Source of the DNA: Balneolaceae bacterium
Lineage (GTDB): Bacteria > Bacteroidota > Rhodothermia > Balneolales > Balneolaceae
Direction: 5' to 3'
Assembly (NCBI GenBank): GCA_040882225.1
Contig: JBBEBR010000011.1
Coordinates: 7,576 to 71,575 of the forward strand
Length of the DNA: 64,000 nt
Part shown: in pieces, positions 35,240 to 58,795 of the stretch
Layout: every line of letters begins with the position of its first letter
Position numbering within the stretch: position 1 is the first letter of the stretch
Program-made: the position numbers and the translations under genes
The notes under the pieces: generated by a model
Told to the model about the DNA's origin: nothing
The model's input: only the letters and a program-made list of their open reading frames with translations
Databases searched by the model: none

Positions 35240-36496
35240 CTACCTCAACCTCTCAACAATCTCATCAAAGCTGAGCTGAGCTTCTTCACTCTCCTTCATA
35301 TTTCGGAGGGTAAATTTGCCTTGCTCCAGTTCATTATCACCAATTATTACTGTGTAACGGGCATTTTCCCGGTTGGCATCCTTCATCTGTGCTTTCATCG
35401 AGCGCCCGAGATAATCCATAGTGGCAGATAATCCCGCTTCTCTTGTTTTGGGAAGATGAGTAAGTGCCCATTTTCGTGCGGCATCACCTAAAGTCACAAA
35501 ATAAACATCCACAAATTTTTCTTCAGCAAGGGTGATGTCAAGTTCTACACAGGCAATGAGTAAACGTTCCATTCCGGCTGCAAATCCTACGGCGGGAGTG
35601 GGTTGGCCGCCGATCTCTTCAACGAGTAAGTCATACCGTCCGCCACCAGCCAAAGCATCCTGCGATCCTAAATCCGGGCTGATAAGTTCAAAAGCAGTTC
35701 TTGTGTAATAATCCATTCCCCTGACAAGATAGGGATCGAGTGTATAGTTGATTTTTAGTTCATCGAGATATTCCCGCACTTTCTCGAAATGCTGAGTGGA
35801 TTCTTCATTTAAGAAGTCCTGAATAACCGGCGCACTTTTTATGAACTCCTGATCTTCCGGTTCTTTTGAATCCAGAATTCGCATCGGATTTTTCTCAAAG
35901 CGTTTTTGTGAAAGTTCACTAAGTTTATCCAGGTTCGGGTTCAGGTATTCTCTGAGTGCTTTTTTATAATTCTCACGGCTTTCAGGATCGCCAACAGAAT
36001 TAAGCTTCAGGTCAAAATTCTTAATCCCAATGCGTTGATAAATGCGAATCATGAACGCAATGCATTCCACATCTGCCACAGGATCATCACTGCCAATTAT
36101 TTCCACTCCAAATTGGTGGAACTGCCGCTGTCGCCCTTTCTGTGGCTTCTCCGCCCGAAACATCGGCCCGATATAATAAAGCTTCTGAGAACCGCCACGC
36201 TGATCCAAATGATGTTCAACAAAAGCCCGAACTACCGGCGCGGTTAATTCCGGCCGCAATACATAATGACTGTCCCCTTTCTGAAAAGCAAAAATCTCTT
36301 TAGAAACAATATCCGTTAACTGTCCGATGCCACGTACAATCAGCTCGGTCTGCTCCATGATGGGAGTTCGAATTTCCTCAAAATTAAACTTAGCGGCTTC
36401 CTCATGAATGATATTTTCTAATGCTCTCCATTTTGGGGATTCATCAGGAAGAATATCAACCATTCCAATGTGGGAGGTATATTTGGGTTTAGCCAT
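35240..36496 (-). CDS. hisS: Histidine--tRNA ligase
   Basis: LRPELTAPVVRA, FRAEKPQKGRQRQFHQFGVE, LVRGMDYYTRT, GGGRYD, GFAAGMERL. Confidence 0.98.
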   Translation of the reverse strand: MAKPKYTSHIGMVDILPDESPKWRALENIIHEEAAKFNFEEIRTPIMEQTELIVRGIGQLTDIVSKEIFAFQKGDSHYVLRPELTAPVVRAFVEHHLDQRGGSQKLYYIGPMFRAEKPQKGRQRQFHQFGVEIIGSDDPVADVECIAFMIRIYQRIGIKNFDLKLNSVGDPESRENYKKALREYLNPNLDKLSELSQKRFEKNPMRILDSKEPEDQEFIKSAPVIQDFLNEESTQHFEKVREYLDELKINYTLDPYLVRGMDYYTRTAFELISPDLGSQDALAGGGRYDLLVEEIGGQPTPAVGFAAGMERLLIACVELDITLAEEKFVDVYFVTLGDAARKWALTHLPKTREAGLSATMDYLGRSMKAQMKDANRENARYTVIIGDNELEQGKFTLRNMKESEEAQLSFDEIVERLR

Positions 36497-36548: not shown

Positions 36549-36704
36549 ATTGTCACTCTGAGCGCTCACAAACTATTTTTTTGGAATAATCTTGAATGCG
36601 AAGAGTCTCAAGTGATGATGAACAATTCCGTTAATTAATAACTTGAGATCCTTCGTGGTTACCAATTTTCCCTTTAAAACTATGTTTGCACTCAGGATGA
36701 CAAT
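36549..36704. repeat. Long REP-like nested hairpin element
   Basis: Outer arms ATTGTCACTCTGAG / CTCAGGATGACAAT; inner arms GCGAAGAGTCTCAAGT (36598-36613) / ACTTGAGATCCTTCG (36641-36655). Confidence 0.7.
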
Positions 36705-36723
36705 GCAAGAGTATCAAAGCCAA

Positions 36724-36764
36724 AGATAAGAGGAGTGGGGGAGAATGTCTTAGGTGAATTTGGT
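36724..36764. repeat. Direct repeat copy A (41 bp, includes 35-bp core)
   Basis: AGATAAGAGGAGTGGGGGAGAATGTCTTAGGTGAATTTGGT, identical to 37425-37465. Confidence 0.95.
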
Positions 36765-36769
36765 AATGA

Positions 36770-37099
36770 TTATTGTATCAATTTGGAAAAAACTTTACTT
36801 ACTTGATTTTTTAAATCAGGTGAAATCTCACCTATAGCTTTTTCTACTATATTTTTTTCCAGGGTAGCTAATTTATGAACTCGAATAATAGAAGGGAGTT
36901 TAAGTCCAAAGTCTTTCCAACTTTCAATATGGATATCATGAACGGAATTATTTATTTGACTTGTAATTCTGCAAACTAAAATATCACCATCTTCAAAATC
37001 ACCAAGAACTAATGCTGGACGTTTTTTAAATGATTTACCATCGGTGAAGGGAAACTTAAGCAAGACGATTTGACCAAAATTCAGTTGATCCATAATCAT
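36770..37099 (-). CDS. PemK/MazF-family toxin
   Basis: GQIVLLKFPFTD...KKRPALVL...ITSQ...GLKLPSIIR..KLATL...IGEI. Confidence 0.85.
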   Translation of the reverse strand: MIMDQLNFGQIVLLKFPFTDGKSFKKRPALVLGDFEDGDILVCRITSQINNSVHDIHIESWKDFGLKLPSIIRVHKLATLEKNIVEKAIGEISPDLKNQVSKVFSKLIQ

Positions 37100-37314
37100 T
37101 AATTATCATAAACGGCATCTGAATCAGCATATCCTTTTAAAAAGTGTTCCTGAGTAGATTTCCTGTATGCAACGTCACCATTTAACTGCTCATCATCAAT
37201 CAATAATATAACCCTTACACTTTTCTTTCGGCTCTCTTTTAATGCAGATTCAAATTTCTTAGGTATCTCGATTCGTTGATTCTTTATTTTCGATTTGAAT
37301 TCTATTGCTTTCAT
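37099..37314 (-). CDS. Putative antitoxin
   Basis: 71 aa, directly upstream of the toxin with TAATG stop/start overlap; MKAIEF...IEIPK N-terminus and acidic YADSDAVYDN tail. Confidence 0.65.
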   Translation of the reverse strand: MKAIEFKSKIKNQRIEIPKKFESALKESRKKSVRVILLIDDEQLNGDVAYRKSTQEHFLKGYADSDAVYDN

Positions 37315-37424
37315 AAGTCTGTCTTTTTCTAAAAAATAGAGAATTTAATCATTAATGTCTTTCGTTAGTTGACTGATAGAGTTTAAATATAGGATTTAGC
37401 TTTGGCCAAAACTGGATTTAGATT

Positions 37425-37465
37425 AGATAAGAGGAGTGGGGGAGAATGTCTTAGGTGAATTTGGT
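37425..37465. repeat. Direct repeat copy B (41 bp)
   Basis: Identical to copy A. Confidence 0.95.
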
Positions 37466-37542
37466 GAGAGTACTGATTATTTACTTTGAGGAAAAACAAG
37501 ATTAGCCTGACTACCATTTTCTTTTCTGTAGATTGTAAAATC

Positions 37543-37615
37543 TGAGTTATAGAAAACTTTTCTATAACTCATTTTTTATAATATATTGAGCTATAGAAAA
37601 TAAGGGCATAACTCA
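37543..37615. promoter_or_regulatory. Tandem palindromic operators upstream of fic
   Basis: Perfect TGAGTTATAGAAAA-C-TTTTCTATAACTCA (37543-37571) and degenerate TGAGCTATAGAAAA-T-AAGGGCATAACTCA (37587-37615). Confidence 0.7.
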
Positions 37616-37617
37616 CG

Positions 37618-38727
37618 ATGTGGAATTGGCAACATAAAGATTGGCCGGAATTTGTATACGACCCGGAAGAGTTTTCGGGTTATGAAAACAAGTTCCTGCA
37701 AAAATCAGGAATCATGCTTGGTAGTATGAAGCATATTACCGAGGAAGATCAAGCTACGCTCAAGGTAAACCTGATAAGTGATGAAGCCTTCAAAACCTCT
37801 GAAATTGAAGGAGATATTTTGGACAGAGATTCTTTGCAATCCTCCATAAAGAAGCAGTTTGGTTTACAATCCGATAACCGAAAAATTTCTCCGGCCGAGC
37901 AGGGAGTGGCTGAAATGATGGTGGATGTGTACCAAAATTTCCAAACCCCGATTGACCTTGATTTGCTGTTTAATTGGCACCAGATGCTTATGAGTGGACG
38001 AAGAGATCTTCAAGTGATAGGAGGTTATCGTATCCACTCAGAACCAATGCAAGTGGTATCCGGCCCTGTTAACCGCCCAGCCGTTCATTTTGAAGCTCCG
38101 CCTTTCGAGAAAATTCCTGAAGAAATAGATCGTTTTATTGAGTGGTTTAACCGTACCCGGGCGGGTGGTCCCCAGGAATTGCCCGGTTTATTACGTTCCG
38201 GCATCGCCCATTTGTACTTCGAAAGTATTCACCCGTTTGAGGATGGGAACGGCCGCATAGGGAGAGGGATATCCGAAAAGGTATTATCCCAAAGCTTGGC
38301 CCGGCCAACACTAATTGCGATTTCCACAACCATCGAAGCCCATAAAAAAGCATATTATCTGGCTTTACACCGTGCTTCAGCGGGCCTGGAGATTTCGGAC
38401 TGGCTACACTATTTTTGCAAGATGGTATTGAATGCCCAAGATCGTACCCAAAGCATGATCGATTTCCTTATTGAGAAGGGGAAGTACTACCAAGCTTATA
38501 TGGACCAACTCAATGACCGTCAGGCTAAAGTTGTAGAACGGATGTTCAGGGAAGGTATTTCCGGTTTTGAAGGAGGACTAAGTGCGAAGAATTATCTTAG
38601 CATTACCGGAACCACAAGAGCAACGGCCACCAGAGATTTACAAAGCCTGGTTGAAATGGGGGCTTTCACCAGAACCGGTAAAAGAAAATATACGCGTTAT
38701 TTCCTGAATATTGACATGAATCGGTGA
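37618..38727 (+). CDS. Fic-family protein (DUF4172-type N-terminus, C-terminal HTH)
   Basis: MWNWQHKDWPEF start; HPFEDGNGRIGR Fic motif; SAKNYLSITGTTRATATRDLQSLV HTH-like C-terminus. Confidence 0.92.
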   Translation: MWNWQHKDWPEFVYDPEEFSGYENKFLQKSGIMLGSMKHITEEDQATLKVNLISDEAFKTSEIEGDILDRDSLQSSIKKQFGLQSDNRKISPAEQGVAEMMVDVYQNFQTPIDLDLLFNWHQMLMSGRRDLQVIGGYRIHSEPMQVVSGPVNRPAVHFEAPPFEKIPEEIDRFIEWFNRTRAGGPQELPGLLRSGIAHLYFESIHPFEDGNGRIGRGISEKVLSQSLARPTLIAISTTIEAHKKAYYLALHRASAGLEISDWLHYFCKMVLNAQDRTQSMIDFLIEKGKYYQAYMDQLNDRQAKVVERMFREGISGFEGGLSAKNYLSITGTTRATATRDLQSLVEMGAFTRTGKRKYTRYFLNIDMNR

Positions 38728-38796
38728 CGCATAATGGTGCAGAGGTTTAGCGATGTATTTTTGGTTGAAGTGAGATTATTGAAAGGCTTAAAAGAT

Positions 38797-38831
38797 TAAG
38801 AGGAGTGGGGGAGAATGTCTTAGGTGAATTT
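38797..38831. repeat. Direct repeat copy C (35-bp core), overlapping the wzx stop codon
   Basis: TAAGAGGAGTGGGGGAGAATGTCTTAGGTGAATTT, identical to 36727-36761 and 37428-37462. Confidence 0.95.
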
Positions 38832-40308
38832 ATAGCTTCAAATATTTAGCTGATATTTTTTTAACAGTGTGTTTAAATTCATCTGAAAGATCGAAAATCC
38901 ATATGATAGCCAAGTATAAAATAGCCATTATCGTAGAGCGGATAAAAGTATCCAGGTATATGTTTTCCAAATATGGTAACTGAAAAGAAAGTATTAGTAT
39001 TACAACTCCATTTACTATAATTCCAATAGTTTTCCAACTGAAGGGCTGCATCGAAAATTTTATCTGAACAAATACCAGTTTAATAATATTGTAAACCAGC
39101 ATAGAACAAGAAGTAGCTAATGCGGCACCAATAATTCCATAACGAGGAATAAGAAAAGCATTCATGGCAATGGAAAAAACGACAAGAAAAGAAGTAAATA
39201 GCATATCATGCTTATAATATTTGGAAGAAAGTATGATCTGTCCATTTGTTCCGCTTATCATATCAAAAAGATTAGCGGCACCTATCAGCAGGATTACAAT
39301 TCCTCCGGCAGCATATTCCTCCGGAAGCATAGCAAAGAGATTATCCATATTCGCCCATACCCCGATATAGAACAAAAAGCCCACCAAGAACATGTTAAGC
39401 GATGTCTGTTTATACATCTTACTCACACTTTTTAGGTCATTATTCTCCATATCCTTGGAAATAAGAGGAAATGAGATTTTAGAAATAGATCTTCTAGCTA
39501 CAGAGATCACAGTACCTACATAGAAAGCTATGGCATAAATTCCCGTTTGCTCCAGTCCTTTGTAGGCGCTCAGCATCAGGATATCAATATTACCCACTAA
39601 GATCATTGTGATTCTTCCGAAGAAAGAATAAAAACTGTAGGAACTAATTCTTTTCAGAATTGGCTTGTTAATTAGTTCCAATGGCAGGCTAAGATTCAGG
39701 TAATTCTTTTGAAAACTATAAATCAGCAGGATCAATAATATAAGGCCATAATTTCCGACAAAGATAAAGATAAAAGTGTCGAATGAGATGAAACCAAAAT
39801 ATACCAGAATCAGACTGATTACAATTACAATCCGTTGTAATACATCCTGAAGGAATGAGGCAAATACAGTATCCAACAAAGAACTGATATAACTTGATAA
39901 GACTGCAAAAAGAGCAGAAAAAAGGATCAATGGGATGATGAAATGATAATATAATCCTAATAGTGGGGAATCCTCATAAATATTAACTACGAAATCCTGA
40001 AACAGGAGGATGAAAATGCTTAGTAAAAGAAAGACAAAAACTACAGGGATTATAAAGAGCAGAAATAATCCTCTGGTATTTTCTGTATGCTGAATCAAAT
40101 ACGGAAATTGTTTAATAATGGTATTTGGTATTCCAATGCTGATTATTTGTGAACCCACAAACATAATGGCTAAAAGAGTTCTAGTGAGGCCAAATTCTTC
40201 AGCTCCTAAAATATTTGGAAATAACTGAACGGTAGAAATGAAACCAATTATAATTCCTAAATAAGAAATTACAGCGTTTCTGATACTTTGATTTATGATG
40301 ATTCCCAA
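38830..40308 (-). CDS. Oligosaccharide flippase (Wzx/MATE-like polysaccharide exporter)
   Basis: About 12-14 TM; MGIIINQSIRNAVISYLG, D..ML, GIYAIA, N..LIPRYGIIGAALAT. Confidence 0.88.
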   Translation of the reverse strand: MGIIINQSIRNAVISYLGIIIGFISTVQLFPNILGAEEFGLTRTLLAIMFVGSQIISIGIPNTIIKQFPYLIQHTENTRGLFLLFIIPVVFVFLLLSIFILLFQDFVVNIYEDSPLLGLYYHFIIPLILFSALFAVLSSYISSLLDTVFASFLQDVLQRIVIVISLILVYFGFISFDTFIFIFVGNYGLILLILLIYSFQKNYLNLSLPLELINKPILKRISSYSFYSFFGRITMILVGNIDILMLSAYKGLEQTGIYAIAFYVGTVISVARRSISKISFPLISKDMENNDLKSVSKMYKQTSLNMFLVGFLFYIGVWANMDNLFAMLPEEYAAGGIVILLIGAANLFDMISGTNGQIILSSKYYKHDMLFTSFLVVFSIAMNAFLIPRYGIIGAALATSCSMLVYNIIKLVFVQIKFSMQPFSWKTIGIIVNGVVILILSFQLPYLENIYLDTFIRSTIMAILYLAIIWIFDLSDEFKHTVKKISAKYLKL

Positions 40309-40443
40309 ATTCTGCCAGTCTCTAATACAATATTGTTATTGAAAAAAAATGATGATTTATGTCGGAGAGGTATAATTAAAGATAAAAATTACTATGTTTG
40401 ATTCACAGGAAGGTTGTATTAATATCAAACCCTCACGCTCTAC

Positions 40444-41520
40444 TTGCACCTGATAGTTCATATATCACCGAAAGGTATCTTTATTCATGATTTTATAGCT
40501 TTTGTTGAAAAGTATTTCAATAAGAGAGGACATAAATATTTTTTATATGTGAAAAAAGATGTTTTAGAGAAAGAAGTGAGAGATAATGAATATTTTATAA
40601 ACTATAGTTCAAAAATAATCAAATTTCAGTCTCTGCGAAATTTGATTAAAATGATTACGGAGATTAACAGGGCGGAAAAAGTAATACTACATGGTCTCAA
40701 TGAATCTCTCACTGTTCTTCTGCTACTATTTATGCCATGGAATTTAAAAAAATGTTATTGGTTTTCATGGGGAGCGGATATTTATAAATATCAACAAGAT
40801 GATCTTTCCCTTAAGCTGAGAATTTTATACATACTAAAAAGGATTGTAGTAAACCAACTTGGTTATATTGTTGTGACGATTGAGGGAGAGTACAAAAATA
40901 TAAAGAAATGGTTTGGTGCGCGGGGTAAATGGATAAGTAGTTTTAAGTACCCAAGCAATTTGTATAAAGATCAACCCGTAAATTATCAGTCTGTTGATGA
41001 CGGTGTGACCAGAATTTTACTGGGAAACTCTGCAAGTCCTTCCAATAATCATATGGAAGTTTTGGAGCGGATAAAGCAGACGATTCCGAAACATGCTGAA
41101 TATATCATCTATTGTCCGCTTTCCTATGGGGATGCTTCGAATGCAAAAAAAGTATGTGATAAAGGTCATTATTATTTTGGTGATCGATTTAAACCATTAA
41201 TAGATTTTATGCCTTTGGATGATTATTTAAACCTTTTGTTTAAAATTGATATCGCAATTTTTAATCATAATAGGCAGCAAGGGATGGGAAATATCATCAC
41301 ATTACTTGGTATGGGGAAAAAAGTATTCATAAGAGAAGATGTTACACCATGGGAATTTTTTAATGGATTAGATATAAATATTTTTTCGATTAATGATCTT
41401 GAATTCAAACCTCTAGACGAGGTATCTAAAGAGCAAAACTTAAAGGTAATCAGAAGCTATTTTTCAGTAGAAAGATTAAAAAATGAACTGAACAAAATTT
41501 TTCATTCACCTAATTTATGA
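40444..41520 (+). CDS. TDP-N-acetylfucosamine:lipid II N-acetylfucosaminyltransferase-like (WecF/RffT family)
   Basis: W.SWGADIY, ILLGNSASPSNNH, CPLSYGD, FMPLDDYLNLL...DIAIFNHNRQQGMGNIITLL.MGKKVF. Confidence 0.8.
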   Translation: MHLIVHISPKGIFIHDFIAFVEKYFNKRGHKYFLYVKKDVLEKEVRDNEYFINYSSKIIKFQSLRNLIKMITEINRAEKVILHGLNESLTVLLLLFMPWNLKKCYWFSWGADIYKYQQDDLSLKLRILYILKRIVVNQLGYIVVTIEGEYKNIKKWFGARGKWISSFKYPSNLYKDQPVNYQSVDDGVTRILLGNSASPSNNHMEVLERIKQTIPKHAEYIIYCPLSYGDASNAKKVCDKGHYYFGDRFKPLIDFMPLDDYLNLLFKIDIAIFNHNRQQGMGNIITLLGMGKKVFIREDVTPWEFFNGLDINIFSINDLEFKPLDEVSKEQNLKVIRSYFSVERLKNELNKIFHSPNL

Positions 41521-42641
41521 TACCATTCAATAAACAAAACCTTTTTGGGGATGAACTTGAATATATTAAAGATACCTACGCTTCTCGAAAAGTTGCCGGT
41601 GATGGTAAATACACCAAATGGTGTAATTCCTTTATTGAAAATAAATTCGGAACTAAAAAAGCTTTACTGACAACATCAGGCACGCATGCTCTTGAATTAG
41701 CCATGCTATTAATAGATCTTAAACCCGGTGATGAAGTAATTATCCCCTCTTATACTTTTGTATCTACAGCAAATGCCATTGTGTTGCGAGGAGCCACTCC
41801 TGTCTTTGTAGATATTAGAAAGGACACATTAAACATGAATGAAAAATTAATTGAAGAGAAAATTTCAGAGAGAACGAAAGCAATACTACCTGTTCATTAT
41901 GCAGGCGTTTCATGTGAGATGGATTCAATAAATAATATTGCTGAAAAATATAATTTGTTTGTTATCGAAGATGCGGCTCAGGGTGTGAATGCCAAATACA
42001 AAGACCGGTATTTAGGAACATTGGGCCATTTTGGATGCTACAGTTTTCATGAAACCAAAAACTATAGTATGGGTGAGGGTGGGGCCATTTTAATTAATGA
42101 CGAACGATTTATAGAACGAGCAGAAATCCTTCGTGAAAAAGGAACCAATAGGGCAAAATTTTTTCGAGGTGAAGTGGATAAATATACTTGGGTTGATATT
42201 GGATCAAGCTTTTTGCCTTCAGATATCAATGCCGCCATACTCAGAGCTCAATTTGAACATCTCGATCAGATTCAAAAAAAGAGAACCTCTATATTTGATT
42301 TTTATTATAAAGCTCTGAAACCACTTCATGATTCAGGAATGATTCGTCTTCCCATTATACCCGACAATTGTTCTTCAAATGCACATATGTTCTATATTCT
42401 TGCTAAAGATATGGAGGAAAGAACAAGACTGATCAGTCATCTTAAGGAATCAGGAATTTTAGCTGTCTTTCACTATGTTCCGCTCCATTCAAGCGAATTT
42501 GCCCGAAGTCAATTCGGTAATATAAAACTTCCGGTAACGGAAGAATTATCGCAGAGATTGGTTCGATTACCTATGTATTATGATCTAGAAATGAAGGAAG
42601 TCGATGCTGTTATTCATGCCATTAATTCCTTTTATAACTAA
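41517..42641 (+). CDS. rffA: dTDP-4-amino-4,6-dideoxygalactose transaminase
   Basis: MIPFNK, GDGKYTKWC, LTTSGTHALE, VIEDAAQ, SFHETKNYSMGEGG, EKGTNR..FFRGEVDKYTWVDIGSS, VFHYVPLHSS. Confidence 0.93.
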   Translation: MIPFNKQNLFGDELEYIKDTYASRKVAGDGKYTKWCNSFIENKFGTKKALLTTSGTHALELAMLLIDLKPGDEVIIPSYTFVSTANAIVLRGATPVFVDIRKDTLNMNEKLIEEKISERTKAILPVHYAGVSCEMDSINNIAEKYNLFVIEDAAQGVNAKYKDRYLGTLGHFGCYSFHETKNYSMGEGGAILINDERFIERAEILREKGTNRAKFFRGEVDKYTWVDIGSSFLPSDINAAILRAQFEHLDQIQKKRTSIFDFYYKALKPLHDSGMIRLPIIPDNCSSNAHMFYILAKDMEERTRLISHLKESGILAVFHYVPLHSSEFARSQFGNIKLPVTEELSQRLVRLPMYYDLEMKEVDAVIHAINSFYN

Positions 42642-42692
42642 TAATTATTGTATCTGAGTATCACAATTGAAATCTTATTTAATTAAAACAGT

Positions 42693-43178
42693 ATGATATC
42701 AAGTAAAGCGAAAATTGGTAAAAACACTGATATCCATCCTTTAGCATATATAGAAGATGGAGTTGAAGTTGGAGATAATACTAAAATAGGTCCATTTTGC
42801 ATTGTCCGAGAAGGGGCAAAGATAGGTGAAAATTGCAAGTTTACCGCCTATTGTGAAATAAGGGAAAATGTGATGATTGGAGATAACACATCATTTGGCA
42901 GTAGGTGTACAATATCGGCTAATGCTACTATTGGAAAAGGCGTGACAATTAAATATGGATTTGTATTAACTGATACTCCAGATCTTAAACATGGCGATGT
43001 AAAAGTAGTTAAAGGAGTTGGTGACGGTGCGATGATCGGTGCTAATGTAACTTTAATGCCCGGTTTCTTTATCGGTAAAAATGTAATAATAGGAGCATGT
43101 TCACAAGTTCGCTCTAATGTATCCGATAATGAAATTTGGTATGGAAATCCTGCAAAATTTTTTAAAATAAATAAATGA
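42693..43178 (+). CDS. Hexapeptide-repeat (left-handed beta-helix) acyltransferase
   Basis: IGKNTDIHPLAYI, VGDNTKIGPFCIV, IGENC, IGANVTL, YGNPAK. Confidence 0.8.
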   Translation: MISSKAKIGKNTDIHPLAYIEDGVEVGDNTKIGPFCIVREGAKIGENCKFTAYCEIRENVMIGDNTSFGSRCTISANATIGKGVTIKYGFVLTDTPDLKHGDVKVVKGVGDGAMIGANVTLMPGFFIGKNVIIGACSQVRSNVSDNEIWYGNPAKFFKINK

Positions 43179-43852
43179 AAATAAATGAATGGATGTCAAA
43201 TTTCTACGGAATGCCTTGGTTGGAAATAGAAGATGAGAATGATGCCATAGAAGATCAAAAAAAATGTCTACTGGAATGGAGAGTACCAGTACAAAATATT
43301 TCTTCTTTTTTTTCGGCTCAGGAAAAAAATTTTGATTTGGTAGAAAGTTCTATTCTTTTTGAAACAAAAGTTAAAGGATTACCTGTTGAGTTTCCTGAAA
43401 TTTCATTGGCTACAGATGATGATTTGGATGAAATGCTTCAAATCACACACAAGTGTATGATTAGAAATGAAATGGTATATACTCGTTTTAAAAACTCAAG
43501 ATATTTCACTATTGAACAATGTGATGAATATTATCAATTGTCTGTAAAGAATAATTTCTTTGATAAAAAAACAGTTTCTGTTGTTTCAAGAGATAATTAT
43601 GGAATTAATGGTTTTTATATGCTCAAAGAAGTAAATGGAAATGTTTTTAAAGGAGTCATGACTGGAGTGTTGCCTCATGCACGGGGAAAACGATTGCATA
43701 TTAAAATGCAACAATTTTCATTTGCATTTATTGACCGTAGCATTACAGTAATAAATTCCACGCAACTAAATAATTTTAATGTTATAAAAAATCATATGAA
43801 AGAAGGCCGAAACATTTCAAAAATTGAGTATATTTTTTATCTAAAAAAATAG
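43175..43852 (+). CDS. Hypothetical protein, possible GNAT-fold WecD/RffC-like acetyltransferase
   Basis: TGVLPHARGK acetyl-CoA-loop-like segment, C-terminal STQLNN...Y..Y pattern, position after rffA. Confidence 0.45.
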   Translation: MKINEWMSNFYGMPWLEIEDENDAIEDQKKCLLEWRVPVQNISSFFSAQEKNFDLVESSILFETKVKGLPVEFPEISLATDDDLDEMLQITHKCMIRNEMVYTRFKNSRYFTIEQCDEYYQLSVKNNFFDKKTVSVVSRDNYGINGFYMLKEVNGNVFKGVMTGVLPHARGKRLHIKMQQFSFAFIDRSITVINSTQLNNFNVIKNHMKEGRNISKIEYIFYLKK

Positions 43853-43949
43853 AAATAGACCTCACTCATTGTTGCGGTATATATAGAATAAATATTCATG
43901 TCCTTTCCACCAAAATGATAAAGATTATCGGCTTGAATAAACGCTCGTT

Positions 43950-44780
43950 TTAGTAGTGTTTATTTTTGTGAGGCACATTTAATTTTTCCCCTTTTATTTT
44001 TAGTGAAAACTTCTTGTTTGGAAAGCTTGGAAATTTAGTAAAATGTACCGGTAGCTCTATATTCTCTATGTAAACAGCACACATGGTGTTTGATACATGA
44101 TATAAGTTTTTGTGTTTATCTTTAGGAATTCCATCTAAAATTGCTTTCAAAGTGGTATAACGAGTATTTTCAGTATGGAAGCCATAGTCATGCCATACGA
44201 TTACTGCGCTATTGCTTTTTCTTAAAGGGAATACTTTTTTAGTGTCGCTTAATACACCTTCATAGGTATGATCCCCATCTACAAATATGAGATCAAATTT
44301 CTTGTCAAGTTGATTGAAATCATATGTGTGAGAATTCGCTTCAATTCTTTTTATTTTATTTATATGGTTTGAAAATACCCCATGAACTTTGATGAATTCT
44401 TCTCCAAAATTTAATTGTTTCATTTCATCACTAGACAATGTTAATGATGTACAATCTTCAGTAACATTCGAAACATTAACCAAGCTCTCTCCCCTCCAAC
44501 TACCTATTTCTAAATAGGCACATTTACTAATCTTTTTTGCCAATGATTTAAGCAAAACTAAATCGGTTATAAGGGATGTACCTTGTAAAAAACTATAAGA
44601 ATCTATTTCTTCATCCAAACCTGGAAACAAGTCTAAAATGTTAATTGAAGGTAGTTGTTCAATGTTATATTTAGCAATGAGCTTTTTTTTAAAATAAACT
44701 TGTTCTCGAACCCTTACGCCCTCCAATAGAACTGCGATTGGGTTTTGAAGTAATACTTTTAGCCCTAGTTTCTTATTCAT
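43950..44780 (-). CDS. Class I SAM-dependent methyltransferase (Methyltransf_24-like)
   Basis: YLEIGSWRGES, FDLIFVDGDHTYEGV, IVWHDY. Confidence 0.85.
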   Translation of the reverse strand: MNKKLGLKVLLQNPIAVLLEGVRVREQVYFKKKLIAKYNIEQLPSINILDLFPGLDEEIDSYSFLQGTSLITDLVLLKSLAKKISKCAYLEIGSWRGESLVNVSNVTEDCTSLTLSSDEMKQLNFGEEFIKVHGVFSNHINKIKRIEANSHTYDFNQLDKKFDLIFVDGDHTYEGVLSDTKKVFPLRKSNSAVIVWHDYGFHTENTRYTTLKAILDGIPKDKHKNLYHVSNTMCAVYIENIELPVHFTKFPSFPNKKFSLKIKGEKLNVPHKNKHY

Positions 44781-44907
44781 TCAAAATGTATTTATTGTTT
44801 AAATATATTATGCTTAATAATATCATAAATAGATAGAAAATATTTAAAGAACGTAAGGAAATATAAATAATGACGGTTGCGATTACTAAAACAGTGAATT
44901 GTAATCT

Positions 44908-45052
44908 CTAAAAAAGAGCTCCTTTAAATTCTTTTGCCCATTTCTGATATTCAATTTCCTTTTCATCCAGACTTTATTTTAGCAACGATTTAGCTTCATG
45001 TTCTACCCTAATATCCGGGGAAATTTCTTTCAAGGACCATCAAAATTTTCAT
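44908..45052 (-). pseudogene. Frameshifted, truncated GT4-like glycosyltransferase remnant
   Basis: ATG overlaps the wecB stop (ATGA). Reads MKILMVLERNFP, then a frameshift in a C4 run, then PDIRVEHEAKSLLK*, then SLDEKEIEYQKWAKEFKGALF*. Confidence 0.6.
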
Positions 45053-46119
45053 GGCTGTTCCAGTTTGATGAGGATCTCAGTAATTTTTTTCGCAGCATTT
45101 CCCTCTCCATACAATGGCTTCCATATACTAATACTATCAGATTTTTCAACTGCAGAAATTATTTTCTTCTCATCCGCCCCCGCCAAAATATTCCAGCCAC
45201 CTTCAAGCGTCTCTACCCATTCAGTTTCTTCACGAATGGTAATACATAGTTTTTTCATCCAATACGCTTCTTTCTGAAGCCCTCCGGAGTCTGTTATTAC
45301 CTTAGAACAATTTTTCAATAAAATAAGCATCTTGAAATAGGAAACTGGATCAATCAGGTGTAGATTTTCAGGAATAATAAGGTCTTTTAATTTACTTTTA
45401 TTTCTTGGATGAACCGGCCAAAGTACAGGCTGATTTAATTTTCCAAAGGCACTAATGATGGATTTTAAATTATCAGGATCATCTGTATTGGACGGACGAT
45501 GAATAGTGGCAAGAATGAATTCGCCTGTTTTTAAGTGAGTAACATCAGCCAATGTATATTTTCGATCTGCGATCTCTGAAAAGGTCAAAACGGCATTATA
45601 CATCACATCGCCAGCATTAAATACATTTTTGGTAATTCCTTCTTTTTTTAGCTGTTCAACTCCTTTCAATGATGAACAAAAAAGAAGATCCGAAGCGTGA
45701 TCAGTAAGTATTCGATTAATTTCCTCAGGCATTTCCCTGTTAAAACTTCTTAGTCCTGCTTCAATATGTACAACCGGGATATGCAGCTTTGATGCCACGA
45801 TAGCGCCTGATAGTGTAGAATTTGTATCACCGTAAACAAGAACGGCATCAGGATACTTATCGAGATCCATGATATATTCTTCAAGCTTTTGCATGATCAA
45901 GCCCATCTGCATACCATGATTTCCTGATCCCACCTCCAAATTCACAGAAGGCGCCGGAAGTCCAAGCTCTTCCCAAAAAACAGTACTCATTTCATGGTCA
46001 TAATGCTGACCTGTATGAACGATTCGTTCACTAATTCCAGCTTCAGCCATGGCCTTAGAAACAACTGCCGCTTTCACAAATTGAGGGCGGGCGCCAACAA
46101 TGGTTAAAATGGTTTTCAT
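45049..46119 (-). CDS. wecB: UDP-N-acetylglucosamine 2-epimerase (non-hydrolysing)
   Basis: IVGARPQFVK, HTGQHYD, VYGDTNSTL, HIEAGLRSF, MPEEINR, TDSGGLQKEAY, YGEGNAA. Confidence 0.93.
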   Translation of the reverse strand: MKTILTIVGARPQFVKAAVVSKAMAEAGISERIVHTGQHYDHEMSTVFWEELGLPAPSVNLEVGSGNHGMQMGLIMQKLEEYIMDLDKYPDAVLVYGDTNSTLSGAIVASKLHIPVVHIEAGLRSFNREMPEEINRILTDHASDLLFCSSLKGVEQLKKEGITKNVFNAGDVMYNAVLTFSEIADRKYTLADVTHLKTGEFILATIHRPSNTDDPDNLKSIISAFGKLNQPVLWPVHPRNKSKLKDLIIPENLHLIDPVSYFKMLILLKNCSKVITDSGGLQKEAYWMKKLCITIREETEWVETLEGGWNILAGADEKKIISAVEKSDSISIWKPLYGEGNAAKKITEILIKLEQP

Positions 46120-47420
46120 GATGTAAGCTGGTTTAATTCATTTGCCATTATTTCAGTTAATGATTTTCGCGAATATTGATCTGCATTTTCACCTTGGTAT
46201 GATGAAATTCCTTTTTGCCAGTTTGAATACAGGCGAAGAAGTTCACTTTTCAACCGCTCTTTCTCTGAGTAGAGAATAAAAGTCCCCGATTTAGTCTCTT
46301 CAATCACTTTTTTGATATCTCCTTCTACAGGGCTAAGACAAACAATGGGACGCTTAGCTGCCAGGTATTCAAACAATTTTCCGGTTAGAATAAGAGGAGC
46401 ATTGGGCGTATTATTTACGATAAGTAAGAGCGCATCCGACTGTTGCTGAAACCGGATAATTTCATTGTGAGGTACATAATCGATCAGTTCCACCATATCT
46501 TGAACGCCAAAATGATTGATGTCTTCTTTTATAGAACTGTCCACTTTTCCTATCAATCGTAATTTGAAATTAACAGCAAAATCCTTTTCAACTGTTTTTA
46601 AATCGGCTAATGATTGCCAAAGCACTTGAGGGTTTCGGGATGGTGTCATCATCCCAACATGAGAGAGTGTGAACATAGAAGCTTTTTTATACTCTGATTC
46701 AGTAAAATCTGCAGCATCAAAACCATTGGGTATTACAGAGATATTTGTATCAGTAAACTCAGAAAATTCTTTTTTCATTGTAGGACTTATCACAACTATT
46801 TTGTTTGCTGTATCGAGTACTTTTTTTTCCAGTTTATGATGTTTTTTTCTTGCAAAGTCAGAGAGCTTAAGATCTTCAAAGAAATCGATGTTTGTCCACG
46901 GATCCCGAAAATCAGCGAGCCATGGTAATGATAGTGTTCGTGATACTTTCAACCCAATCATATGCATGGAGTGGGGTGGGCCAGTAGAAACAATAGCATC
47001 AACCTGATGTTTTTGAAGGTATTTGTTCAAAAATCTGACAGAAGGCCGAATCCAGAATTTCCGGGCATCAGGGATAAAGAGATTTCCCCTTATCCATATA
47101 GAGAGGTCGTGGTAGAAAGAAGATTCCTTTCCAGATTGCATCAAGCCTGATCCCAATTGCGCCTCTTTTTTCAGGCCTACCAGTTTTTTATAGAAGGAAT
47201 AGGGTTCCCAAATTGGTTGCGTGATTATTGTTACATCTTTGGGGATATCATTACTTAGCGAGTGGTCTATAGCTGGTCGCTCTGGATTAGAAGGTGTATA
47301 AATAACTGGCTCCCAACCATAATCTCGAAGATACTTGCAAAATTTAACCCAACGCTGTACACCAGAACCTCCACTTGGCGACCAGTAATAGGTAATGATT
47401 AAAACTTTTTTACGAGCCAC
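46116..47420 (-). CDS. Glycosyltransferase family 4
   Basis: KKVLIITYYWSPSGGSGVQRW.KF, STGPPHSMH, WLADFRDPW, GKLFEYLAA; GTG 47420 chosen as start. Confidence 0.88.
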   Translation of the reverse strand: MARKKVLIITYYWSPSGGSGVQRWVKFCKYLRDYGWEPVIYTPSNPERPAIDHSLSNDIPKDVTIITQPIWEPYSFYKKLVGLKKEAQLGSGLMQSGKESSFYHDLSIWIRGNLFIPDARKFWIRPSVRFLNKYLQKHQVDAIVSTGPPHSMHMIGLKVSRTLSLPWLADFRDPWTNIDFFEDLKLSDFARKKHHKLEKKVLDTANKIVVISPTMKKEFSEFTDTNISVIPNGFDAADFTESEYKKASMFTLSHVGMMTPSRNPQVLWQSLADLKTVEKDFAVNFKLRLIGKVDSSIKEDINHFGVQDMVELIDYVPHNEIIRFQQQSDALLLIVNNTPNAPLILTGKLFEYLAAKRPIVCLSPVEGDIKKVIEETKSGTFILYSEKERLKSELLRLYSNWQKGISSYQGENADQYSRKSLTEIMANELNQLTS

Positions 47421-49887
47421 CGGATTTTCTGTTTTTGAGCCAGGTGAATCCCCATAATCCTGCAATTAATAACTGGGCAATCAAAGAGAACCACGTTAAA
47501 GCTACACCCACCCGGAAAGATTGGGGATCAAAGCGGAGTTCAAGTTCATGTTCGCCGGCAGGAATTTGTATCCCACGAAGCAGGTAATTTGTTTTATAAA
47601 TGGGGATTTCTTCACCGTTCAGTTCAGCCTTCCATCCCGCCGGATAAAAAATTTCACTAAGCACCAGAAAACCAGGCTCAGAACGGCTGAGGGAAAGTGA
47701 AATCTCGGGCCCGGTATAATTTGTGACTTCAACGGAAGAAGCAGTGTCAGCAGCTGTCGTAATTTGATCCTGAGTTTCAACAATGGCGGTTTGGGAAAAG
47801 TCAACTTCTCCGGGATTTAGATAAGCAAAGGCTTCTTTTGGATCATCAGCAATAATCATAGAATCAACGAAAAAAGCCTTAGGCAGTACATTCTGATTCT
47901 CATAGACCACGCCTCTGTCGCCACGAAATACGGGTTCAAATCCCCGCAGTGGCAGCCCTTCTTGATATGTTAAATATTTGACATTGAGTAAACTTAATAG
48001 CTCTGGATTGAACTTTGGACTCTGCACATCCAGCGGCCCGCCCCCATACATTACATCCTGAACAATACTTAGTTTTGCCCCGGTGTACCCACCCAACGAT
48101 GGATAAAAATAAGAGGGAGTGGCATTGCTGTATAAATTATCCAAAAGCGGAAATACGCGATAGGGATAAGAAGAATTTTCAGCAATGTTTTCTTGAATAT
48201 ATGTATCAATATCCCGGCGCTGAGACTCGAGTGTTTGCTCAGGATCAACATTTGCAGCCACAATCACATTTTCGGGAATGTACCTGTTATCCACATTCAA
48301 CATTTCAAAAAGTGCAATAAGCGCTAAACCTATCATTCCCCAACCCAGAGCTACCCTTTTGGTGAACATGAGATATATCAAACCCGAGGCTAAAACGAGA
48401 ATGAGTGCTAACCGCAGAAGGTCGCCTTTGGCTTTATCTTCTCGTTCGGGAGCCATTTCAGAATTCACATAACTTCTCGCACGTTCTACCACTTGTGGAT
48501 TTTGCGGACTTACCTGATTCTGCTGCGCAATTTGCCTTGCAATATTTTCAACCTCACCAGAACGAGTAAAGTCCATTGAATTAACCTGAATGAAAAGCAG
48601 AAGAATAACAGCTCCAGATAAACCGAAAGGGATATATAAGCTTTTTAACTCCGGCTTCTTTTTCTGTGTGATGAAATCTGCAAGCCATTCCAGGCCATAA
48701 ACTGCTACAACAGAATAACAAAATGCAGTAAAAGCTAACCATGTTTCAGGAACCCGAAATTTTGCAAAATAGGGGATATAGTCGAAAGCGAACTGGTTGA
48801 AAAAAGCAAAATTCTCGCCCCACGCAAAAATAATTCCTAAAGTTCCTGCTCCAAAAAAAACGTACATGATTTTGCTCTTCTGTCGAAATAAAGCAATCAA
48901 AATCAGCGGTAAAGCCAGCGCTCCTATATAATGCGGACCGCTGGTGAAAGATTTATTTCCCCAGTATTCTGGTGATGCCCCGCCAAATAAATCGGGTACA
49001 AAAAAGGTCCAGGTTTCCATAATTCCTTGCGACCAAGCAAAAGCGTAACCGGCGTCAAGGCCGGTAGAACCTTGTAATGCGGAACCTCCACGAATGCTAT
49101 AAGCAGCATATTCTTGTAAAGTGAGTAAACTTTGAGCATGGCCAAGAAGGCCGATAATAGTTCCTATTGCAAGTAATCCTGTTACTTTTGCCCAGGATTT
49201 AATGTGGTTTTCTGAATAAGCTTTCCAGGAATCAAAAATCCATAAAAAACCGATGAGATAGAAAAAGTAATAGGTAATTTGGGGATGTCCCGCCCGGATT
49301 TCTAAAGCTAAAGCCACGCAAAAGAGTAACAATCCCGGCAGCTTTTTTTCTTTTCTTGTAAAAAGCCAATATCCGGCAATTACCCAGGGAGCAAATGCTA
49401 AGGCTACAAATTTCGAGGTGTGTCCCGCACTAATAATAATCGGAAAATAAGCGGTAAGGCCATACATCAAACTTCCAAAAACAGCACTCAATGTTCTGAA
49501 ATCCATCAAAATCAGCAGAAAGTACATGCCCGATAATAATACCCAGTACTGAAATGCGGGATAAATATTTTGAAAAAGAGAAGCAAGGTTATCAAGATGA
49601 GGAACTTGTTTTTTTGTGGAAACCACAAACGAAGGCATTCCCCCAAACATGTTATTTACCCAAAGCGGTTCTTTGTCGTACGTTTCGCGGTATTCTATGA
49701 CCGATTCTGCCCCGGCTCGCCATTGCGTAATATCATGCCGCTGGAATTCCTTTCCGCCAATAGTAGTGGCAGTAAATAGTAAAAAGGGGACTAAAAACAG
49801 AATCAGCAGTGCTATTACATGCTGTCGCGACTTTGGCTGGCTAAAGAAGAAATCCGGGTTTGTCGGCGAAGTTTTTTGCTGGCCCAT
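47410..49887 (-). CDS. YfhO-family (GT-C-like) membrane protein
   Basis: Many TM helices; LWVNNMFGGMP, YAFAWSQG, FTSGPHYIG, FLVLSEIFYP.GW, NYLLRG..IPAGEH. Confidence 0.85.
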   Translation of the reverse strand: MGQQKTSPTNPDFFFSQPKSRQHVIALLILFLVPFLLFTATTIGGKEFQRHDITQWRAGAESVIEYRETYDKEPLWVNNMFGGMPSFVVSTKKQVPHLDNLASLFQNIYPAFQYWVLLSGMYFLLILMDFRTLSAVFGSLMYGLTAYFPIIISAGHTSKFVALAFAPWVIAGYWLFTRKEKKLPGLLLFCVALALEIRAGHPQITYYFFYLIGFLWIFDSWKAYSENHIKSWAKVTGLLAIGTIIGLLGHAQSLLTLQEYAAYSIRGGSALQGSTGLDAGYAFAWSQGIMETWTFFVPDLFGGASPEYWGNKSFTSGPHYIGALALPLILIALFRQKSKIMYVFFGAGTLGIIFAWGENFAFFNQFAFDYIPYFAKFRVPETWLAFTAFCYSVVAVYGLEWLADFITQKKKPELKSLYIPFGLSGAVILLLFIQVNSMDFTRSGEVENIARQIAQQNQVSPQNPQVVERARSYVNSEMAPEREDKAKGDLLRLALILVLASGLIYLMFTKRVALGWGMIGLALIALFEMLNVDNRYIPENVIVAANVDPEQTLESQRRDIDTYIQENIAENSSYPYRVFPLLDNLYSNATPSYFYPSLGGYTGAKLSIVQDVMYGGGPLDVQSPKFNPELLSLLNVKYLTYQEGLPLRGFEPVFRGDRGVVYENQNVLPKAFFVDSMIIADDPKEAFAYLNPGEVDFSQTAIVETQDQITTAADTASSVEVTNYTGPEISLSLSRSEPGFLVLSEIFYPAGWKAELNGEEIPIYKTNYLLRGIQIPAGEHELELRFDPQSFRVGVALTWFSLIAQLLIAGLWGFTWLKNRKSGGS

Positions 49888-58378: not shown

Positions 58379-58467
58379 GGAGAGGTGGCTGAGTGGCTGA
58401 AAGCGCTCCCCTGCTAAGGGAGTTTACCCGGAAACGGGTAACGAGGGTTCGAATCCCTCCCTCTCCG
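58379..58467 (+). tRNA. tRNA-Ser (anticodon GCT), CCA not encoded
   Basis: Acceptor GGAGAGG/CCTCTCC, anticodon stem CTCCC/GGGAG with loop CTGCTAA, long variable arm TACCCG-GAAA-CGGGTA, GGTTCGAATCC, discriminator G. Confidence 0.97.
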
Positions 58468-58481
58468 CATTCTTTTTTTTT

Positions 58482-58592
58482 CCGGAAACGGGTAACGCGG
58501 GTTCTGCCGGAGGCATCCCGTTGGGAGAATCCCTCCCTCTGTGCATTCTCTTTTACTTTCTGGAAACGGGTAACGTGGGTTCTGCCAAAGGA
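58482..58592 (+). repeat. Two degenerate tandem copies of the tRNA-Ser 3' half
   Basis: CCGGAAACGGGTAACGCGGGTTC..GAATCCCTCCCTCTGTGCA (58482-58545) and CTGGAAACGGGTAACGTGGGTTC (58560-58582). Confidence 0.9.
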
Positions 58593-58795
58593 ATCCGATC
58601 AACGAATGGCGAAGCACGATTTGATAAGTTATAGATGGGGCATCCAAATTGGCTCCGGATAAACTTTGGAAATTTGCTTTCCATCGTTCGGCTCACTCTG
58701 AACAGGACAAAACTAAATACTTGGAGAGACGCATGATGGAAGTGAGCTTTTCCGAAATGATCTGCGGTTGATGAACTGAAAGTTATTGAGCTTAA

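Follow-up and report, generated by a model that had tools for sequence, protein, structure and literature searches.

Copies of a 35-nt sequence at the wzx–hisS junction of a Balneolaceae bacterium bracket addiction modules and point to an insertion hotspot with swappable cargo

We analyzed a 64,000-nt stretch of the genome of a Balneolaceae bacterium (contig JBBEBR010000011.1 of assembly GCA_040882225.1, positions 7,576 to 71,575; hereafter, the window), in which a 35-nt sequence, called R below, occurs three times between hisS and a wzx-like flippase gene. The conserved flank is hisS (35240..36496, minus strand, assigned with Pfam), whose product is 88–90% identical at the amino acid (aa) level to Gracilimonas HisS, and the host is a Gracilimonas-like member of the Balneolaceae. 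The variable flank is the flippase gene (38830..40308, minus strand; Pfam PF01943 Polysacc_synt), the first gene of a low-GC polysaccharide cluster resembling that of the enterobacterial common antigen.

R (TAAGAGGAGTGGGGGAGAATGTCTTAGGTGAATTT, written as the plus strand) matches exactly, always in the same orientation, at 36727–36761 (copy A), 37428–37462 (copy B) and 38797–38831 (copy C), where chance predicts no repeated 35-mer in the window. These three positions had been noticed in an earlier sequence-only reading, together with the identity of copies A and B over 41 nt (36724–36764 versus 37425–37465), and exact searching agrees on both points. We found no further copy in the window with up to 3 mismatches, and none with up to 11 substitutions. 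Copies A and B are spaced 701 nt apart and copies B and C 1369 nt, which leaves intervals of 666 and 1334 nt between the repeats. All three copies are annotated on the minus strand. Copy A is the native, hisS-proximal copy, and a −7 box, TATCTTTG (minus strand, 36721–36728), abuts it. Copy B lies between the two modules described below, with flanks that are unrelated to those of copy A outside the 41 nt. Copy C is wzx-proximal and, as previously read, overlaps the wzx stop codon (by 2 nt). R shows neither a hairpin nor dyad symmetry: folding energies of the 41-mer and its 91-nt contexts are 0 to −3.2 kcal/mol (z −0.3 to 0.4, both strands). No inverted repeats were found at the R copies or the module ends in the window.

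The A–B interval contains an operon of a PemK toxin and a putative antitoxin, in agreement with the first reading of the sequence. The toxin gene (36770..37093, minus strand, in an open reading frame (ORF) that extends to 37099) encodes a PemK/MazF-family protein (Pfam PF02452 PemK_toxin, 6.7e-13) of 107 aa from the second ATG, and this 107-aa form is the form on record. Directly upstream lies the gene of the putative 71-aa antitoxin (37099..37314, minus strand), so named from its position and from the operon structure; it has no Pfam match, and its match to a RelN antitoxin is weak (E = 0.0035). The toxin stop codon is 5 nt from the end of the 41-nt version of copy A, the distance given earlier, and 8 nt from the end of the 35-mer. 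The cargo of the B–C interval is a DUF4172-Fic gene (37618..38727, plus strand, 369 aa; Pfam PF13776 2.4e-26 and PF02661 9.5e-15), homologues of which are widespread at 62–78% identity. Two inverted repeats upstream of it (37529..37615, plus strand; GAGYTATAGAA...TATAACTC) are conserved in Fic homologues and are probably operators; DNA homology between Fic modules begins within them, at 37543. Fic is encoded on the strand opposite to the toxin–antitoxin operon, and both have upstream regions and predicted operators of their own. In exact-protein look-ups, the clusters of the window Fic, toxin, antitoxin and wzx proteins hold only this lineage, and no identical cassette is known elsewhere from these look-ups.

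The sequence-only reading had placed nothing but Fic between copies B and C. Fic is indeed the sole intact gene there, but the last 69 nt of the interval (38728..38796, minus strand), adjoin copy C and repeat, in decayed form, the leader and start codon of hisS (ATCGCTAAACC versus ATGGCTAAACC at 38744–38754). Local alignment of this segment with the leader of a related genome (L002) gave z = 6.2, with 0 of 300 shuffles scoring as high, and a blastn comparison with the native site and leader of another relative (L095) gave 75% identity over 96 nt (E = 1e-11). The decayed leader is of the L002/L095 type and unlike the window's own leader. The duplication that goes with the Fic insertion amounts to ~95 nt in the window, in which R alone is still identical. 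To the right of copy B, positions 37463..37497 (plus strand) may be a decayed toxin 3′ end, given a weak similarity to 36762–36793 (z = 2.7, reached by 22 of 1000 shuffles); a decayed hisS leader after copy B was not significant (z = 0.3).

The same arrangement is present in an independent NCBI contig of a metagenome-assembled genome (MAG; L094) at 99.93% identity. In three sediment-metagenome runs, the unitig of the 35-mer had depths of 36, 169 and 128 against ~12.5, ~62 and ~38 for its flanks, and in the sequencing runs three different flanks join it on each side. This roughly threefold depth indicates that R occurs about three times per genome and is not dispersed; a genome-wide count had been proposed as a check. 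Both cassettes have the depth of their flanks in these runs and are thus fixed, single-copy DNA. The L094 match and the run depths show that assembly did not create the array. Contigs representing one genome per species held no exact 26-mer match, so that the source species is missing from that set, and a degenerate 23-mer search found nothing among viral contigs and, among metagenome contigs, only three empty sites. A DNA search with the whole array gave no phage match, and plasmids returned only distant Fic genes.

An empty site, with a single copy of R, was found in five relatives: Gracilimonas amylolytica (L003), a related MAG (L002) and three metagenome contigs (L082, L083 and L084). In each, R is identical to the window sequence at 31 of 35 positions and lies ~45 nt before the hisS ATG. 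Copy A of the window stands 230 nt from hisS because of a 156-nt insertion in the hisS leader (36549..36704, unstranded) that resembles a miniature inverted-repeat transposable element, with 17-nt terminal inverted repeats (ATTGTCAYYCTGAGYGC), and has no second copy in the window. In four of the five empty sites, the first 12 nt of R are the last codons and the stop of a co-directional wzx; G. amylolytica retains only a remnant of the wzx 3′ end. R of the empty sites terminates at TATCTTTG, which we take to fit the Bacteroidota −7 promoter consensus TAnnTTTG, and this −7 box is kept 35–45 nt upstream of hisS in 17 of 17 other Balneolaceae loci examined. R itself is absent from G. tropica and from most other Balneolaceae hisS loci.

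Among the five empty sites R is identical at 35 of 35 positions, while their hisS genes are 81–99.7% identical and their 45-nt leaders represent two unrelated types of allele. The hisS genes of L002 and L083 are 99.7% identical and their wzx ends are shared, whereas their leaders are only 64.6% identical; conversely, L082 and L084 have identical leaders and wzx ends with hisS genes at 82%. That R stays invariant amid such mosaic leaders and hisS genes implies that it is constrained, and that recombination breakpoints cluster at R, the leader and the start of hisS. R itself would have a promoter function.

Two further relatives carry different cargo at this site, as the sequence-only reading had anticipated for an exchangeable array (leader and hisS copies beside the cargo are written leader′ and hisS′). 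In L097, a MAG from the window's own study that matches the "variant" in runs X3 and X4, the order is R′c1, leader′, ATGGCTAAACCT (the hisS′ start), a 5′-truncated Fic gene on the opposite strand, VapB/VapC (VapC matching a PIN domain), R′c2, leader and hisS. The VapBC pair truncates Fic and adjoins the native copy of R; the Fic remnant (L097 6307–7095) lacks its first ~107 codons, lost to the VapBC insertion. In L095 the order is the wzx end, R1, leader′, 95 nt of hisS′, VapB/VapC, a decayed R2 with a wzx remnant, a frame-disrupted PemK antitoxin–toxin pair, then a wzx remnant with R3, leader and hisS. HisS identity is 87% for L095, and its hisS′ fragment is 86% identical to the real gene. 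Its PemK pair is homologous to that of the window, the toxin pseudogene being 68.5% identical at the nt level; the antitoxin has an internal stop and the toxin start is lost (L095 1162–1705). The observed combinations are thus Fic with PemK (window), Fic with VapBC (L097), VapBC with PemK (L095) and no cargo (the five contigs above). Every module in the three arrays is followed by a copy of R, and the junctions are tight, with 8–11 nt between a toxin stop and R and ~10 nt between the Fic stop and what is left of hisS′. No integrase or other element-gene fragments were found in the window, L095 and L097 arrays. The duplicated part of hisS measures 12 nt in the window and L097 and 95 nt in L095, where the whole duplication spans ~165 nt, so that the ends vary by event. 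Copies of R within L097 and L095 differ by 10–13%; exact identity therefore characterizes the window lineage without being maintained as a rule.

Comparison of the window with L097 indicates that the Fic block moved horizontally. The block, leader′ included, is 92.2% identical between the two, against 80.3% for hisS and ~66% for the next gene, a permease; the wzx-like gene of the window has no DNA similarity to the L097 neighbour. Synonymous divergence (dS) is 0.19 for Fic and 1.65 for hisS, and the hisS′–Fic junction is the same in both genomes, from which it follows that the block entered the same site. In both, the leader′ beside Fic is of the L002/L095 type, unlike the leader of either host, and in L097 the copy next to Fic (R′c1) has L095-type bases while the native copy resembles that of the window. 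Such a foreign leader′ and such donor-type bases show that a block of R, leader′, hisS′ start and Fic came from another lineage. A copy of R thus travelled in with the cargo, and the block landed at the homologous site. Since the foreign sequence of the window starts right after R, the exchange point was the hisS-side edge of R. The 41-nt identity between copies A and B includes GGT of the Fic side and AGA of the hisS side; with GGT inside the repeat, the PemK pair must have entered after Fic, beside the native copy and recently.

At other loci, too, homologues of Fic are often bracketed by repeats of local sequence. The L085 homologue lies between 338-nt repeats, 98% identical, consisting of the 3′ end of a DUF4097 gene (222 nt) and a terminator, and that of L089 between 56-nt repeats (85% identical) that include a terminator. 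No flanking repeat was seen at four of seven Fic loci (L087, L090, L091 and L092), two of which adjoin tyrosine integrases; repeat flanks are accordingly frequent but not universal for Fic. Short-range repeats of this kind are otherwise rare in the 1.49 Mb of sequence fetched. L091 has a 146-nt tandem duplication just upstream of its Fic homologue (1136–1430). In L092, a 15-nt exact direct repeat (1363–1377 and 2933–2947) brackets only the tyrosine integrase of an island that also holds Fic.

Beyond the array itself, the polysaccharide cluster (38830–49887, 28–36% GC) contains genes for the flippase, a family-56 fucosyltransferase-like protein, a DegT aminotransferase, a hexapeptide acyltransferase, a UDP-GlcNAc 2-epimerase, a family-4 glycosyltransferase (GT4) and a YfhO-like protein. 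In a minor contig of run X3 (depth 6), the last 30 nt of the site (at window 38831) run into TATTTGGATTTGGATCGGATATCTAAAAAA. Read by eye, this may be a different wzx 3′ end of ancestral type; if so, a co-occurring strain would have another polysaccharide-locus allele attached exactly where the site ends. Elsewhere in the window (58379–58600), behind a tRNA-Ser(GCT) gene, the only hit of an Rfam scan of the whole window, come two partial, decayed repeats of the variable and T arms of this tRNA (58477–58504, 58527–58554, 58555–58582), which look like scars of past integrations; no integrase was found near this tRNA array.

The comparison of these loci supports a real insertion hotspot with swappable cargo, at which the cassettes behave as exchangeable units. 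As to mechanism, the reading that we favor, and in which our confidence is evenly divided, is a recombination hotspot that addiction modules enter by insertion-duplication anchored on the conserved, promoter-proximal R. Variable repeat lengths, truncated gene ends, donor polymorphisms, a structureless R and the lack of a recombinase in the 64 kb argue for such homology-anchored insertion-duplication and not for a classical attachment site with its recombinase. Copies of the target that vary in length and end in a truncated gene, as expected of Campbell-type integration, are found in the window, L097, L095 and L085; a donor-type repeat copy and cargo younger than its flanks are likewise observed. 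In a Gracilimonas-like subclade of the Balneolaceae, R is the conserved sequence at which the variable polysaccharide locus (the wzx end) meets the hisS promoter, and it would serve as the anchor. An incoming module would carry or generate a second copy of the anchor, giving a module followed by R, most probably through single-crossover (Campbell-type) integration of a circularised fragment containing the module and one anchor copy. A repeat-flanked module could be excised as a circle bearing a single repeat and insert again, by one crossover, at a naive site or at an occupied one. In this way modules and polysaccharide-locus alleles might be shuffled between lineages, with breakpoints clustering at R, and addiction modules would survive decay because their loss is counter-selected. 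In the window genome, Fic came before PemK. The circular intermediate, host homologous recombination in place of a dedicated enzyme and addiction-based survival of the cargo are what we infer from this pattern. The earlier proposal of an attachment site regenerated by serial capture is borne out insofar as each module re-creates the native junction sequence, and departs from what we found in that the duplications overrun the 35-mer into hisS.

Several observations weigh against insertion-duplication by homology. All 35 nt of R agree in the three window copies, against a likeness to relatives of only ~75–85% in the duplicated leader beside them and differences of 10–13% among the R copies of L097 and L095, so that either very recent events or conversion confined to R must be assumed; identity confined to R is the pattern that the core of a site-specific crossover would give. 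RecA-type recombination is inefficient on 35–41 nt. At least four or five independent insertions at one intergenic site in a narrow clade suggest targeting. For Fic at three unrelated loci, the Campbell route needs prior illegitimate joining at each, and target duplication upon insertion would be a simpler origin of the repeat flanks. No circular form, donor vehicle or intermediate was seen among the k = 31 contigs of the runs, and the enzyme scan behind the negative result for recombinases covered 64 kb of the genome. One contig of run X4 joins 38796 to 36727 (Fic 3′ end, R, toxin; it "goes back 2070"), as a 2.07-kb circle or a reordered array would. It does not count here as evidence of a circle: no 31-nt assembly word can span the 35 nt of R, and with the window-type strain at only ~3–10x depth and its other branches missing, a contig could run through by dropout, hence the joint may be a graph artefact.

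Exactness speaks for another explanation, in which R is the attachment site of a site-specific recombinase acting in trans and circles of a module with one R are captured serially at the hisS-proximal copy. The window copies are sharp-edged beside diverged flanks, R follows every module in three genomes with toxin stops 8–11 nt away, and the youngest module is nearest hisS both in the window (exact 41-nt repeat) and in L097 (VapBC truncating Fic). The Fic block also reached the same site in two hosts with its own R, and CTTATCTTTG, invariant except in the decayed or altered window copies B and C and L095 R1 and R2, could be the overlap region. What such an enzyme would not leave are non-functional hisS fragments of 12 and 95 nt and the wzx remnant of L095, which reveal ends that are not fixed, nor the 56- and 338-nt target duplications unrelated to R at other Fic loci; the copies of R have diverged within L097 and within L095 and so are not maintained there, neither dyad symmetry nor structure is seen in R, and the 64-kb window holds no recombinase. 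We consider this explanation rather unlikely, though a serious rival, and slightly less likely still its extension to a trans-acting system of a Gracilimonas subclade, by which minimal addiction cassettes (a module with one R) would be taken up and swapped directly upstream of the promoter of an essential gene, analogous to integrons with an unrelated site and enzyme. It is doubtful, to a further degree, that the modules are scars of larger decayed elements (integrase islands, prophages or plasmids) of which the addictive genes and the attachment or homology repeats were left. Toxin–antitoxin pairs and Fic are typical stabilising cargo, close Fic homologues lie in small islands by tyrosine integrases (L087/L088 and L092/L093), decay is under way in L095 (PemK pseudogenes, R2) and L097 (truncated Fic), and a separate array after the window tRNA-Ser resembles attachment-site scars. 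Yet the three arrays contain no fragments of integrase or element genes, their junctions are tight (stops 8–11 nt from R, the Fic stop ~10 nt from hisS′), and the 92% unit shared by the window and L097 is only Fic and a site copy.

Direct duplication of the target at each insertion, by widely staggered breaks, or by a linear fragment joined to both sister duplexes at a fork, with fill-in, in the manner of CRISPR (clustered regularly interspaced short palindromic repeats) adaptation or of a long target-site duplication, would explain why the 41-nt PemK repeat includes 3 nt of the Fic module, as blind copying would, why Fic is flanked by duplicated local sequence at three unrelated loci with no need for prior homology, and why the interrupted gene (hisS or DUF4097) is left with an intact copy. 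We hold it improbable: the foreign leader beside Fic came with the cargo and was not copied from the host site, the duplications range from 35 to 338 nt with no ruler, and neither cas, casposase or transposase genes nor terminal inverted repeats are present. Hardly credible is an origin of R as a dif-like site at which the host XerC/XerD integrated the modules, as for integrative mobile elements exploiting Xer (IMEX) or pdif modules. It is recommended by the absence of a cognate recombinase from the window and by a match of TTAGGTGAATT to the E. coli XerD arm at 8 of 11 positions, on which the sequence-only reading had speculatively built. That link falls: the centre has 4 nt in place of 6, no inverted inner arms and no symmetry are seen, and all repeats are direct while pdif modules alternate. 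R is moreover tied to the wzx–hisS junction and absent from other Gracilimonas hisS loci, including that of G. tropica, as befits a local sequence near a promoter but not a site for resolving chromosome dimers.

An integron-, CRISPR- or Xer-type origin is therefore not supported, nor is a dedicated cassette-capture enzyme in the sense of a new integron-like machine. No recombinase, integrase or transposase domain was found among ~55 ORFs scanned in the window, in line with the first reading, which had also correctly dismissed a palindromic attC and a CRISPR array. An integron array was rejected for want of an IntI/integrase domain among these ORFs and of an attC fold, and a CRISPR array since the intervals hold genes and measure 666 and 1334 nt against spacers of ~25–70 nt, with no cas domains and no Rfam hit beyond the tRNA-Ser. 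A transposon or insertion sequence was rejected on the lack of a transposase and of inverted module ends and on duplications of 35–338 nt. The array resembles integron arrays in its small, serially arranged units, often toxin–antitoxin pairs, each followed by a repeat and with the newest near the fixed end; it differs by having no IntI in the window, no attC hairpin and no GTTRRRY core, and by modules with their own promoters, in both orientations, between repeats of host sequence.

The locus stands close to known hotspot and accretion phenomena, with homology-anchored insertion-duplication as the preferred mechanism. Chromosomal integration hotspots, a concept reportedly put forward by Oliveira, Touchon and Rocha in 2017, share with it an intergenic junction of core and variable DNA, empty and occupied alleles, direct repeats and the lack of a mobility gene; here, unlike there, a 35-mer is exact three times, duplications in relatives reach 165–338 nt and the cargo is always of the addiction type. 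Campbell-type insertion-duplication is a laboratory procedure in which a plasmid unable to replicate carries a piece of the chromosome. As in that procedure, the repeats are the carried homology, one of them ends in a truncated gene (hisS′ or DUF4097′) and one is of donor type; in contrast, the window homology of 35–41 nt is very short for RecA, and no natural vehicle or circle was seen. Accretion arrays without a recombinase of their own are formed by cis-mobilizable elements (CIMEs) with streptococcal integrative and conjugative elements (ICEs), by pseudo staphylococcal cassette chromosome (pseudo-SCC) elements at orfX and by IMEX at dif. They too are tandem, recombinase-less modules with direct copies of the integration site between them, at a gene end. 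Their recombinase is known (ICE integrase, Ccr or XerCD) and their core fixed, whereas the modules here measure 0.7–1.4 kb and the repeat ends vary. As in island accretion, direct repeats like attachment cores flank elements at a conserved target that has a single R in relatives with an empty site; a cognate recombinase with a fixed crossover was found in none of the window, L095 and L097 arrays, whose duplication ends vary. JUMPstart/ops sequences stand at the 5′ end of enterobacterial polysaccharide clusters and act in RfaH antitermination. Like R, they are a short conserved edge of a variable polysaccharide locus that marks the end of allelic replacement; we know of no JUMPstart duplicated around inserted modules. 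Flanking repeats have been reported on 10–18% of small variable segments, mostly of <30 bp (Touzain et al., 2010; PMC2884548).

The locus forms a natural series, with an empty site, three cargo combinations and both young and decayed repeats. It shows toxin–antitoxin and Fic modules colonising a chromosome in a little-studied phylum without a mobility gene, a copy of the site travelling with the cargo. As R also marks swaps of polysaccharide alleles, surface-antigen variation and the turnover of addiction modules meet at a single recombination junction. Should a short anchor near a promoter suffice for repeated capture and exchange, many gene islets flanked by repeats may arise likewise; the participation of a dedicated enzyme would make this a new cassette system.

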